Origin: Nakamurella deserti
GTDB taxonomy: Bacteria; Actinomycetota; Actinomycetes; Mycobacteriales; Nakamurellaceae
Direction of reading: 5' to 3'
Assembly (NCBI RefSeq): GCF_003260015.1
Contig: NZ_QCXS01000003.1
Coordinates: 206,315-238,314, forward strand
DNA: 32,000 nt
The notes beneath the pieces were generated by a model. The model was given only the letters and a program-made list of their open reading frames with translations, did not search any database and was not told the origin of the DNA. Shown piece after piece: positions 6,254-27,739 of this stretch. Position numbers and translations under genes: made by a program. Numbering within the stretch: the stretch's first letter is position 1; every line of letters begins with the position of its first letter.

Positions 6254-7471
6254 GTGACGTCTGGTGCCGACCCCGCACCGTCCCCGGAGCCGCCGGGTGG
6301 GGACGGCCAGGCGCCGCGCCGGGCCTTCCCGGGTTCGGTGGGCGGGCCGCCTCCCCTGGGTCCACCGCGGGTGGCGGTGTGGCGGGACGAGTGGCTGGCG
6401 ACGTCGGAGACGTTCATCGCCAACCAGATCGGCGCGACCCACCGCTGGAAGCCGGTGCCCGCCGGCCTGCGCGTGATCCCGGACGGGCTGCCCCTGCGAC
6501 CGGCCCGCGTCCTGGGTGACCGCATCTCGGCCCGGATCGCCCACCAGATCGACGCGGAACTGGCCCTGCGGTTGTTCTACGACAGCGTGCTGCGCCGGGA
6601 GCCGGTGCAGGTCGTGCACGCGCACTTCGGCCCGGACGCCGTCACGGTGCTGCCGCTGGCTCGTCGCCTCGGACTTCCGCTGGTCGTCACCTTCCACGGC
6701 TTCGACGTGACCAGCGCTCCCGCGGAGACCGGTGGCGCGGGCCGCCGGTACGTCGACCGGCTGCGCGAGGTGTTCGACTACGCCGACACCCTCATCGCCG
6801 TCTCGCGCTTCATCGCCGGGCGGCTGCGCGACCTCGGCGCGCCGTCCCACAAGATCGTGGTCGCCCCCATCGGCATCCCGGTGCAGCCCGGGACCCACGA
6901 CGACCAGGCACGGTGCGGCGTCAGTTTCGTCGGGCGGCTCGTGCCGAAGAAGGGCGTGTCGGACCTGATCGACGGACTGGCCGGGGTGCCCCGCGAGCTG
7001 CTCGACGGGCAGCCGATCCGGGTCATCGGGTACGGGCCCGACGAGACCGCGCTGCGCGACCGGGCCCGCCGGGCCGGCCTGCCGGTGGAGTTCCTCGGCA
7101 AGCGGGACCCCGCGTTCATCGCCGACACGCTCGCCCGCAGCCGGATCTTCTGCGGGCCGTCCCGCACGGCCGCCAACGGCGATTCCGAGGGTTTCGGGAT
7201 GGTCTACCTGGAGGCGGCGCTGCAGGCCGTCCCGGTCGTGGCCTACCGGCACGGCGGGGTTCCGGAGGCCGTGGCCGACGGCGAGACCGGGCTGTTGGTA
7301 CCGGAGGGCGACGTCGCGGCCCTCACCGCCTGCCTCACCCGGCTGCTGGTCGACGCCGACGCCGCCGCGGCGATGGGCGCCGCGGGTCGCCGGCGGGTGC
7401 TCGAGGAGTTCGACATCGAGCGGCGCACGCTGCGCCTCGAGGAGATCTACGACCGAGCGGTCGGCCGCTGA
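6254..7471 (+). CDS. GT4-family (GT-B fold) glycosyltransferase
   Basis: C-terminal half carries the GT4 signature (FVGRLVPKKG..., EGFGMVYLEAALQAVPVVAYRHGGVPEAVADGETGLLVPEGD). The start is uncertain: GTG 6254 is the longest, and GTG 6371 (VAVWRDEW...) would remove a Pro/Gly-rich 39-aa extension. Confidence 0.85.
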   Translation: MTSGADPAPSPEPPGGDGQAPRRAFPGSVGGPPPLGPPRVAVWRDEWLATSETFIANQIGATHRWKPVPAGLRVIPDGLPLRPARVLGDRISARIAHQIDAELALRLFYDSVLRREPVQVVHAHFGPDAVTVLPLARRLGLPLVVTFHGFDVTSAPAETGGAGRRYVDRLREVFDYADTLIAVSRFIAGRLRDLGAPSHKIVVAPIGIPVQPGTHDDQARCGVSFVGRLVPKKGVSDLIDGLAGVPRELLDGQPIRVIGYGPDETALRDRARRAGLPVEFLGKRDPAFIADTLARSRIFCGPSRTAANGDSEGFGMVYLEAALQAVPVVAYRHGGVPEAVADGETGLLVPEGDVAALTACLTRLLVDADAAAAMGAAGRRRVLEEFDIERRTLRLEEIYDRAVGR

Positions 7472-7479
7472 CCGACCCG

Positions 7480-7640
7480 GTCGGACACCGTACGTCCGGA
7501 CGGCCCCCCGGGCGACCAGGACCGGCGCCCGGAGCGGGGAGTCGGACACCGGGCTCCCGGACGGACCCCGGGCGGCCAGGACCGGCGCCCGGAGCGAGAA
7601 GTCGGACACCGGGCGCCCGGACCGACCCCGACGGCCCCGG
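7480..7640. repeat. 60-bp imperfect tandem repeat, about 2.6 copies, in a convergent intergenic region
   Basis: Units start at 7480/7481, 7541 and 7601 (gtcggacaccg..ccggacgg.ccccgggcg.ccaggaccggcgcccggagcg.g.a). Units 1 and 2 differ at about 10 positions including one indel; unit 3 is truncated. Confidence 0.8.
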
Positions 7641-22584: not shown

Positions 22585-22850
22585 TCGCCCGCGAGATCGG
22601 CGTCGTGGGGGTGCCCGTCGACGTCGGCGAACCGTCGACGCTGACCGTGACGCAGCGCCAGACTCCCTTCGACTTCGGCGCTCGCGGGTTGGGCGTCGTG
22701 CGGGTTCCCGTCCGAGTCGGCGGGCCTGGCGACGCTCACCGGTGACGCGTCGTCGGGTTGCCGGGCGACATCGGCGGGCTCCCGATGCTCACCGGCGTGG
22801 CGTCGTCCGTGTGCCGTTCGAGGTCGTCGGGCCGTCGGTGCTCCTGGTGG
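22585..22850. repeat. degenerate ~47-54 bp tandem repeats (about 5 units) downstream of metX
   Basis: The motif ggcgtcgtg.gggt.cccgtc.a.gtcggcg recurs near 22599, ~22650 (weak), 22692, 22746 and 22799. The period is not a multiple of 3, and every reading frame is broken by stops or frameshifts. Confidence 0.45.
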
Positions 22851-26060: not shown

Positions 26061-26663
26061 TCAGACCAGCAGCGCGTTGGTCGCCAGGTGCCCGGCGAAG
26101 ATGTCGAGCACCTCCCGCGCCTGGACCCCGTCGCGGCGCGCGACGTAGTCGATCATCAGGCCGTCGAGGGTCGCCTGCACCAGGGCGGCGAGCTGCGGGA
26201 CGGGGACGACCCATTCGATGCCGTACCGGGCCTCGACGCCGGCCAGCCACTGCTCGGCGATGCGCAGGTGGGTCGTGTGCAGCGAGAACCCCATCCGGGC
26301 CAGCAGCCCCGGGTCCCCCACCTGGCCGAGCAGCAGGACGTGCAGGGCGTGGTGCTCGTCGATCCGCTGCTCGATCATGTCCCAGACCGCACGCAGCGAG
26401 GTGCGCAGCCCGGTCTCCAGGCACGCGGCCAACCGGACGGGGCCGCCCGGATTGGCGACGTGCGAGTCGAGCAACCTCGCCGTGATCGCGACGTAGATGC
26501 TCTCCAGGGAATCGAACCAACGGTCGAACTCGGCCCGCCCGAGGCCGGCGGCGGCGCAGATCGCGTCGGCGTCGATCGCGCCGAGACCACGTTCGATGAG
26601 CAACGTGACCGTGCTGTGCAGGATGCGTTCGCGACCGTCGAGGGCGGTGTCGGGAGAGTGCAC
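26061..26663 (-). CDS. TetR/AcrR family transcriptional regulator
   Basis: N-terminal HTH (GRERILHSTVTLLIERGLGAIDADAICAAAGLGRAEFDRWFDSLESIY) followed by an all-helical C-terminal domain. GTG 26663 with AGGAG 6 nt upstream. The 541-aa track ORF is an extension running antisense through aac(2'). Confidence 0.88.
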   Translation of the reverse strand: MHSPDTALDGRERILHSTVTLLIERGLGAIDADAICAAAGLGRAEFDRWFDSLESIYVAITARLLDSHVANPGGPVRLAACLETGLRTSLRAVWDMIEQRIDEHHALHVLLLGQVGDPGLLARMGFSLHTTHLRIAEQWLAGVEARYGIEWVVPVPQLAALVQATLDGLMIDYVARRDGVQAREVLDIFAGHLATNALLV

Positions 26664-26805
26664 GGATCGCTCCTGTCGTGGGTCGCACCGGTCGGCGGAT
26701 CTCGGGACCGGGCGGCTGTCGTGCGGGTCGCCCGGTGTGCGTGGTGGGCCCAACGGACGGTGCGGCTTGAATAATAATGCGCACGGGCCGGTCGCGAGGG
26801 CCGAT

Positions 26806-27264
26806 CGAGTCGCCCGTCCGCTGGTGCCTCGGGGCGGGCCCGGTGGGATGGGCGGATGATCGGTGCCTGGCGGGTTGAGGTGGTGCTCACCGCCGAGCTC
26901 CAGAGCATCCGGCGGTCGGCGGAGTCGCCCGGCGCTCCGGGGCGGGCCCCGGTGGGATGAGCGGATGCACAGTGCCTGGCAGGTCGAGGTGGTGCACACC
27001 GCCGACCACGGGACCATCAAGCGTCCGATGACGTCGCCCATCCGCTGGCGCCAGGGAACGGGCCGCGATGGGATGGACGGATGCACAGCGCCTGGCAGGT
27101 CGAGGTGGTGCACACCGCCGACCACGGGACCATCAAGCGTCCGATGACGTCGCCCATCCGCTGGCGCCCGGGAACCGGCCGCGGTGGGATGAGCGGATGA
27201 ACGGTGCCTGGCGGGTCGAAGTGGTGCACACCGCCGACCTGGGGAGCATCCGGCGGTCGGCGGT
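26806..27264 (+). repeat. tandem array (period 109-116 bp, 4 start-codon-bearing units) duplicating the RBS, ATG and first ~15-25 codons of aac(2')
   Basis: ATGs at 26856, 26965, 27081 and 27197 each follow ggtgggatg(a/g)gcgg-like sequence and precede gcctggc(a/g)ggt(c/t)ga(g/a)gtggtgc(a/t)caccgccga. Units 2 and 3 differ at about 6 of 116 positions. Confidence 0.9.
27081..27200 (+). CDS. upstream ORF 3 (39 codons, MHSAWQVEVVHTADHGTIKRPMTSPIRWRPGTGRGGMSG), stop overlapping the aac(2') start
   Basis: The ATG context is identical in type to the real gene. Its TGA (27198..27200) overlaps the aac(2') ATG (27197..27199) as ATGA. Translation is unproven. Confidence 0.3.
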   Translation: MHSAWQVEVVHTADHGTIKRPMTSPIRWRPGTGRGGMSG

Positions 27265-27739
27265 GCGGGCGCTGCTGTACGAGGTGTTCGATGACATGAC
27301 CGAGCCCGACTGGGAGCACTGCCTCGGGGGCGTGCACGCGCTGACCGTGGCCGACGGCGGGATCGTGGCCCACGCGGCGCTGGTCGCGCGGCGCCTCGGA
27401 CATCGTGGTCGCCCCCTGCGGGCCGGCTACGTCGAGGGCGTCGCGGTCCGCCCCGACCGGCAGCGGCAGGGTCTGGGGTCGGCGGTGATGGCACCCCTGG
27501 AGCGGATGATCGTCGACGCCTACGAGGTGGGGGCGCTGGCCGCCACGGACGACGGCGCCCGCTTCTACACGGCCCGCGGCTGGCGGTCCTGGGCCGGGCG
27601 CACCTGGTCGCTGACCCCGGACGGCGCGGTGCGCACCCCCGACGACGACGACTGCGTGTTCGTGTGGCCGGGTGCGTCGGAGCCACTGGACCTCACGGGC
27701 GACCTGCTCGCCGACTGGCGCGACGACTGCGCCTGGTGA
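27197..27739 (+). CDS. aac(2'): aminoglycoside 2'-N-acetyltransferase, AAC(2')-I family (GNAT)
   Basis: 180 aa, colinear with M. tuberculosis AAC(2')-Ic (Rv0262c) from memory: VVHTADL, TEPDWEHCLGGVHAL, IVAHAALVARRL.HRG..LRAGYVEGVAVRPD, GAL, ARGW..W.G.T..LTPDGAVRTPDDDD.VFV.P, DWR. The 223-aa track ORF (from 27068) reads through repeat unit 3 and is not supported by homology. Confidence 0.88.
   Translation: MNGAWRVEVVHTADLGSIRRSAVRALLYEVFDDMTEPDWEHCLGGVHALTVADGGIVAHAALVARRLGHRGRPLRAGYVEGVAVRPDRQRQGLGSAVMAPLERMIVDAYEVGALAATDDGARFYTARGWRSWAGRTWSLTPDGAVRTPDDDDCVFVWPGASEPLDLTGDLLADWRDDCAW

Follow-up and report, generated by a model that had tools for sequence, protein, structure and literature searches.

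The stretch analyzed here, 32,000 nt of the Nakamurella deserti genome (contig NZ_QCXS01000003.1; hereafter the window), carries on its plus strand an AAC(2')-I-like GNAT acetyltransferase gene (27197–27739, 180 residues) whose start region is present in four tandem copies. An N. deserti protein in NCBI (P0001, 180 residues) is 100% identical to the product read from the fourth ATG, at 27197, which points to this codon as the real start and agrees with the statement, made in an initial annotation of this DNA, that the enzyme is read from the fourth copy alone; an exact-protein look-up returned no record for the 180-residue product or for the 223-residue product of a longer in-frame open reading frame (ORF) described below. 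Matches to Pfam Acetyltransf_9, Acetyltransf_7, and Acetyltransf_1, all above their cut-offs, place the product in the GNAT superfamily, and it shares its GNAT domains and full-length homology with the chromosomal AAC(2')-I enzymes, aligning end to end with M. tuberculosis AAC(2')-Ic (PDB 1M44; E 6.5e-45, residues 8–180 against 9–181). All NCBIfam AAC(2')-I models match, AAC_2p_Ic doing so with 159.5 bits over 9–181 of 181, but the curated allele cut-off for Ia–Ie (375 bits) is not reached. Because its NCBIfam score falls under the allele-specific cut-offs, the gene product is best regarded as an unnamed AAC(2')-I homolog and not as a named allele.

Tandem Repeats Finder (TRF) detects an array at 26801–27250 (period 116, 3.9 copies, 81% matches, score 532), which a repeat search resolves into four copies with spacings of 109, 116, and 116 nt. 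The repeated segment comprises the first 22 codons of the AAC(2')-I-like gene and the ~48 nt immediately before them. The window contains four occurrences of GGGATGNNCGGATG (26845, 26954, 27070, and 27186) and no others, against an expectation of 0.00 from 100 shuffles. The ATGs in the repeated context lie at 26856, 26965, 27081, and 27197 and open the peptides MIGAWRVEVVLTAE (first), MHSAWQVEVVHTAD (second and third), and MNGAWRVEVVHTAD (fourth), exactly as initially described. Unit 3, which reads gATgggatgGAcggATG, is two bases off the quoted ggtgggatgNgcgg context.

Unit borders were set by alignment in register with one common junction; all four units are on the plus strand. Unit 1 (26808–26922) consists of 48 nt of upstream sequence (26808–26855) and a decoy start with 22 codons (26856–26922), the tail of which is still like that of the real gene (..ATCCGGCGGTCGGCGG). 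Unit 2 (26923–27031) has its upstream part at 26923–26964, where a 7-nt gap reduces the unit to 109 nt, followed by a decoy start at 26965 and 22 codons. Unit 3 (27032–27147) joins an upstream part (27032–27080) to a decoy start at 27081, and unit 4, the functional copy (27148–27263), joins its upstream part (27148–27196) to the true aac(2') start at 27197, with repeat homology stopping at 27263. Compared in ATG phase, units 2 and 3 have six mismatches over 116 positions (95% identical), precisely the number that had been estimated by eye, and on account of this closeness their split probably represents the youngest duplication.

The decoy starts open three stacked upstream ORFs (uORFs) on the plus strand, with the boundaries originally reported. 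uORF1 (26856–26960, 34 codons) stops 5 nt before the uORF2 ATG. uORF2 (26965–27147, 60 codons) crosses the unit-3 start out of frame, the 116-nt period not being divisible by three, and ends 50 nt before aac. uORF3 (27081–27200, 39 codons) terminates with a TGA that overlaps the aac(2') ATG at 27197 (ATGA), i.e. with the stop/start overlap that characterizes translationally coupled ORFs. This overlap results from the period of 116, which leaves a remainder of 2 on division by three, and from the ancestral ATGnnnnnnATGA context; the coupling geometry of uORF3 and aac is an arithmetical by-product. The "tail" peptide shared by units 2 and 3 is the translated upstream part of the next unit. An in-frame ORF at 27068–27739 (223 residues) is also present and corresponds to the false N-terminally extended product against which the initial annotation had warned.

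Comparison of orthologous leaders, which had been proposed as a check, was carried out on DNA from eight near relatives, ordered here by identity of the AAC(2') protein: L001 (84%), L005 (78%), L086 (76%), L087 (76%), L002 (75%; identical with L006, a 3.9-Mb metagenome-assembled genome (MAG) chromosome), L171 (73%), L003/L004 (71%), and L168 (68%). The start region is single copy in all eight, with no uORF array, and synteny is shared wherever the flank suffices. No start-region repeat was found with TRF in five loci run singly or in L003 run in batch, or by eye in the available flank of L168 and L171 (for L171, 21 nt upstream only). Likewise, TRF detected no comparable start-site array in 167 other AAC(2') loci drawn from both genomic and metagenomic sources; L047 and L112 have small start-proximal repeats, but these were rejected as low-complexity sequence of 29–32 nt and are not duplicated starts. 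The genome-collection scan gave just two close relatives, both already in the comparison set, and did not recover N. deserti, and the metagenome scan gave no match above 64% identity.

The gene that faces aac(2') across the leader is a divergent, TetR-like regulator gene (26061–26663, minus strand, 200 residues) preceded by an AGGAG Shine-Dalgarno (SD) sequence; its assignment rests on NCBIfam TetR-type matches and on a match to TetR_N that is below cut-off (E 0.0036). It is syntenic in L001, L002, L005, and L087, and a partial divergent gene lies upstream in L086 and L168, the L168 fragment having a TetR-like N terminus. The TetR-to-aac spacer measures 533 nt in N. deserti compared with 173–186 nt in L001, L002, and L086 and ~270 nt in L005 and L087; subtraction of the three extra units (341 nt) leaves 192 nt. 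Units are 73–87% identical to one another and at most 70% identical to any orthologous leader. As the units are closer to each other than to any ortholog, the duplications arose inside the N. deserti lineage. Leader length is plastic in the clade (about 71, 170, and 410 nt). L005 and L087 (994–1731 and 1060–1237) carry an extra ~100 nt of non-repeated sequence between an AT-rich box, described below, and the core element that precedes the start, and the L005 gene call P0010, a 245-residue over-extended protein, starts in the AT-rich box; this is a long single-copy leader with no duplication. In L003/L004 (1170–2390; Nakamurella sp. MAGs) a gene for an LtrA-family membrane protein replaces the divergent TetR-like gene, with aac(2') and its flanks unmoved.

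The upstream copies show no detectable constraint beyond a weak signal in the core, which is considered below. In unit pairs that include an old split, the units differ no less often at columns invariant in six orthologs than at other columns (odds ratios 0.85–2.6, all p > 0.09). Relative to codons 1–22 of the real gene, the ratios of non-synonymous to synonymous differing codons are 4:3 for unit 1, 8:2 for unit 2, and 8:2 for unit 3, and family-invariant residues have changed, His11 to Leu in unit 1 and Leu15 to His in units 2 and 3. Purifying selection on the leader peptides was not detected, the power of this comparison being low at ~22 codons. The extra copies thus appear, from their sequences, to be drifting without detectable constraint.

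At the RNA level, predicted fold stability is no better than that of shuffled sequences, either for a single unit (z −0.29) or for the whole 476-nt leader (z −0.04), and RNAalifold analysis of seven orthologous leaders found no conserved structure (covariation term +1.1, many broken pairs). No Rfam family came near its gathering score, with chance matches alone at permissive E-values, and a promoter/terminator scan found no intrinsic-terminator-like or sigma-70-consensus site. A candidate SD-sequestering hairpin, pairing CCGCTGGCGCC with GGTGCCTGGCGG, was rejected, its minimum free energy being no better than that of shuffles and covariation being absent. By these analyses, neither the array nor the ancestral single-copy leader gives any sign of an attenuator.

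The core of each unit is the hexamer TGGGAT (27185–27190, plus strand, 6 nt before the true start; copies at 26844–26849, 26953–26958, and 27069–27074), which had been labeled a ribosome-binding site. This label is doubtful, since the homologous element across the family appears to be the extended −10 box of leaderless transcripts. Among the start regions (−15 to +3) of 147 distinct distant AAC(2') loci (L008–L167), 94 have an xAxxxT hexamer ending 5–8 nt ahead of a candidate start codon (spacer of 6 nt, 49 loci; 7 nt, 40 loci), compared with a background of 3.2% at internal in-frame NTG codons. The profile of these loci (tgcGAGGATg) has T-G-C before the hexamer, as in an extended −10 element, together with a weak T.GC at −35 and an A-rich patch farther upstream; the layout is found in a CTGCsAsGATGnnnnnATGA context, and an SD-like core is present in just 33 of 93 hexamer regions. 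The published WblC/WhiB7 promoter consists of GAAAWY, 3 bp, a −35 element (TKGMNN), a 16–19-bp spacer, and TANNNT, with the transcription start site 7–8 bp downstream (PMC7157823), and the M. abscessus aac(2') gene MAB_4395 is WhiB7 dependent (PMC10727445). GAAAWY is found at the published position in 8 of 92 distant loci, compared with 2 occurrences in the other ~100 positions. Because the extended −10 element abuts the start codon, matching the WblC/WhiB7 layout, these observations imply that AAC(2') mRNAs would typically be leaderless, with drug sensing occurring via WhiB7.

In the Nakamurella clade, all nine members have TGGGAT, TGAGAT, or TGGAAT followed by 6 nt (7 in L086) and then ATG or GTG, the L001 counterpart of window positions 27185–27199 being at 2489–2503. 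Hexamer positions 1, 2, 5, and 6 are conserved and 3 and 4 are variable, a pattern that looks more −10-like than SD-like, and a TGGCGN-like block is conserved ~19 nt upstream. The N. deserti TGGGAT, moreover, stands at the same distance from the ATG as does the −10 element of the WhiB7/WblC leaderless promoters. In contrast to those promoters, N. deserti and its clade have a G at the normally essential −11 position, and so depart from xAxxxT in sequence though not in distance; no GAAAWY box was seen by eye at the published position upstream of the four units or in the clade leaders, and the aac(2') genes are paired with a divergent TetR-like gene.

An AT-rich box (TTGAATAATAATGCGC, 26767–26782), located outside the array, would instead suit a leadered aac mRNA and divergent promoters under TetR control. 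Its minus strand reads TANNNT in each of the six TetR-linked loci, and the box is on this basis assigned to the promoter of the TetR-like gene; its plus strand offers xAxxxT. Overlapping divergent promoters, and the operator of the TetR-like regulator, probably lie here. The box sits in a very GC-rich spacer and is partly palindromic (L001 2415–2431: GCGC..AATATT..GCGC). It was rejected as a WhiB7 site for aac, there being no −10 element at the required distance. The core could be read either as a promoter remnant reused as a weak SD sequence or as a non-canonical leaderless promoter, and each unit may carry a promoter remnant. Under either reading the unit bears the initiation signals of the gene, and the verdict on the array is independent of the choice. 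A three-codon mini-ORF (ATGnnnnnnTGA) overlaps the start in six of the seven close relatives checked, but was rejected as the primary explanation: a 1-nt insertion in L086 breaks its frame while the hexamer-to-start distance stays at 7, and in distant loci its apparent ATG is the ..AT of the −10 hexamer followed by G.

Since the array is missing in relatives and the upstream copies show no constraint, we favor one of the two readings put forward in the initial annotation, that of a scar of repeated unequal crossing-over. The array is probably the product of a lineage-specific, multi-step tandem duplication, now drifting, of a ~115-nt segment (about −48 to +67, counted from the aac(2') start codon), with the uORFs as by-products; the comparative evidence backs this account. 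A first illegitimate or slipped-strand event would have created the junction between codon 22 and position −48, possibly aided by a perfect 11-bp hairpin that ends at the junction. This inverted repeat (CACCGCCGACC, 27229–27239; GGTCGGCGGTG, 27255–27265) lies within aac(2') codons 11–23, and position 27263, the right end of repeat homology, falls in its 3' arm; as single-stranded DNA it has a predicted folding energy of −16.4 kcal/mol (z −1.98), making it a possible slippage hot spot. It arises from synonymous codons unlike those of L001 (CGG TCG GCG GTG compared with CGG TCC GCC GTC). Unequal crossing-over would then have enlarged the array, the latest step giving units 2 and 3. The last copy alone is joined to the enzyme, and the three upstream decoy starts would have drifted since, to a state that we infer is at present close to neutral. 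Copying of the ancestral start region at a 116-nt period would automatically have produced the uORFs together with their frame relations and ATGA overlap, with no evolved sensor involved. The units were also considered as stubs of whole-gene duplications, a possibility ruled out by the single junction position that they all share.

Several observations weigh against so simple an account. Kinship among the units is mosaic: judged by the upstream parts, 1 goes with 2 and 3 goes with 4, and judged by the coding tails, 1 goes with 4 (common ..ATCCGGCGGTCGGCGG) and 2 with 3 (common ..ATCAAGCGTCCGATGA), a pattern that requires conversion or more than one junction, and several rounds of history. None of the three decoys has lost its ATG or its TGGGAT core, and the conserved core has one change in ~35 ortholog-conserved positions compared with ~4–5 expected (p ~0.03–0.1 by a rough, post hoc Poisson estimate, uncorrected for shared ancestry or gene conversion); gene conversion would yield the same pattern of core retention. 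The unit 2/3 event (5% difference) is recent, but the oldest copies differ by 12–25%. As aac four-fold-site divergence from the nearest relatives is 44–57%, the array has been in place for a considerable part of the period since N. deserti separated from its closest sampled relatives. Finally, N. deserti is represented by one genome.

Some of these features would also be expected if the duplication had been adaptive, tuning AAC(2') output by adding ribosome-loading sites that hand ribosomes onward or, if the core is a promoter, tandem promoters, in parallel to the duplications that make erm(C) constitutive. We consider this unlikely. All four starts and cores are intact, the uORF1 stop lies just before uORF2 and uORF3 overlaps aac, the array has persisted long enough to diverge, and the faster evolution of the TetR-aac cassette than of its flanks is compatible with changing selection. 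On the other hand, the single-copy leader is without an attenuator structure whose relief would explain a gain, the upstream copies are unconstrained apart from the core, the course of uORF2 across the uORF3 start to an end short of aac makes interference more plausible than help, and the intermediate state is found in no relative.

The erm(C) leader duplications themselves provide the closest parallel. They too are direct tandem repeats that copy an initiation signal and the truncated 5' end of a resistance gene, the duplicated stretch measures tens of nucleotides, and their origin is ascribed to replication slippage or illegitimate recombination (PMC3429524). They differ in that the parent erm(C) leader is a proven attenuator, the SD sequence of which is freed from a hairpin by the duplication, whereas no such structure is detectable in N. 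deserti. Because the single-copy leader lacks any attenuator signal, the logic of the erm(C) duplications does not apply here. Furthermore, the erm(C) duplications usually involve one extra copy and are recent and plasmid borne under clinical selection, whereas N. deserti, a desert soil actinobacterium, has three extra copies, diverged by up to 25%, on its chromosome.

A more specific arrangement would have four tandem non-canonical promoters (TGGCGN, ~19 nt, TGGGAT) giving rise to leaderless decoy ORFs that relay ribosomes via ATGA, such that the copy number of the module sets the level of AAC(2') or makes it translation dependent. We give this arrangement little credence.

The second reading in the initial annotation, that of a multi-uORF attenuator in which aminoglycosides perturb uORF translation and so alter access to the aac(2') start, fares worse still and is very improbable. 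It owes its appeal to the presence of three uORFs ahead of a gene whose substrates target the ribosome, the last of them coupled to the start through ATGA. Short ORFs upstream of genes that protect against ribosome-targeting drugs are likewise a feature of the erm, cat, and whiB7 leaders, but those leaders show cross-species conservation, specific stalling peptides, and alternative RNA structures, none of which was found in the N. deserti array. Instead, the array is lineage specific, its leader ORFs being absent from all eight relatives and the 167 AAC(2') loci, which is the sequence-level outcome that the initial annotation had itself listed as counting against this reading. The encoded peptides are decaying copies of the enzyme N terminus, in which change is mostly non-synonymous and purifying selection is not detected, and neither stable, alternative, or conserved RNA folds nor a terminator-like site were found. 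The AAC(2') family, moreover, delegates the sensing of ribosome-targeting drugs to WhiB7/WblC (PMC10727445; PMC7157823). Integron aac/aad genes have likewise been claimed to possess a 5' leader, or riboswitch, that makes an aminoglycoside-modifying enzyme drug inducible; that leader is unrelated in sequence, its aminoglycoside sensing is contested (PMC7588185 vs PMC9410878), and N. deserti has no relevant Rfam match. No mycobacterial aac(2') gene with a repeated start region was present in the literature retrieved, and no account of a comparable aac(2') leader was found, though no literature search was aimed at it.

That a short-read assembly expanded or mis-joined a single-copy region is barely credible: the assembly is a draft known from a single record and units 2 and 3 are 95% identical, but artefactual duplications would be identical, whereas these copies differ at 5–25% of positions and by a 7-nt indel, with six differences even between units 2 and 3, so that collapse of further near-identical copies is the likelier risk.

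The flanking genes encode a Cys/Met pyridoxal phosphate (PLP) enzyme and ribonucleotide reductase (RNR). In a comparison of window positions 26061–27739 with L002 (MAG OY969473.1, 1725–3049), four-fold-site divergence is 56% for aac and 39% for the TetR-like gene, compared with 30% for metY and 13% for the RNR small subunit, the last being 98% identical in amino acid sequence between N. deserti and L002; the TetR-aac cassette has undergone either fast evolution or exchange at a conserved site. Under the same settings, three arrays with a period of at least 50 nt were found in the 32-kb window compared with two in 478 kb of other actinobacterial loci, and on this ground the genome region seems prone to such duplications. 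The second array (7480–7630; 60 nt, 2.5 copies, 87% matches) is GC rich with internal complementarity and begins just past the stop of a plus-strand ORF ending at 7471, with long ORFs overlapping it on the opposite strand. The third (22692–22843; 53 nt, 2.8 copies, 70–78% matches) lies just beyond the stop (22874) of a 427-residue minus-strand ORF and is overlapped by other long ORFs. Both arrays are apparently in non-coding stretches.

The interest of the array lies chiefly in annotation and in its value as a small case study. Duplicated start regions yield decoy starts, stacked uORFs, and false N-terminal extensions such as that at 27068–27739, and a designed look in uORFs, ATGA overlap included, can arise automatically through duplication. 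Should the extra copies affect expression, the locus would be a natural and old counterpart of the erm(C) duplications, here in an aminoglycoside-resistance gene on the chromosome of an environmental actinobacterium, and constructs with one to four units would form a system for studying the effects of decoy starts on a downstream gene. For the family as a whole, the putative extended −10 box at AAC(2') starts is an aid to start-codon choice and to the prediction of regulation in this group of resistance genes.

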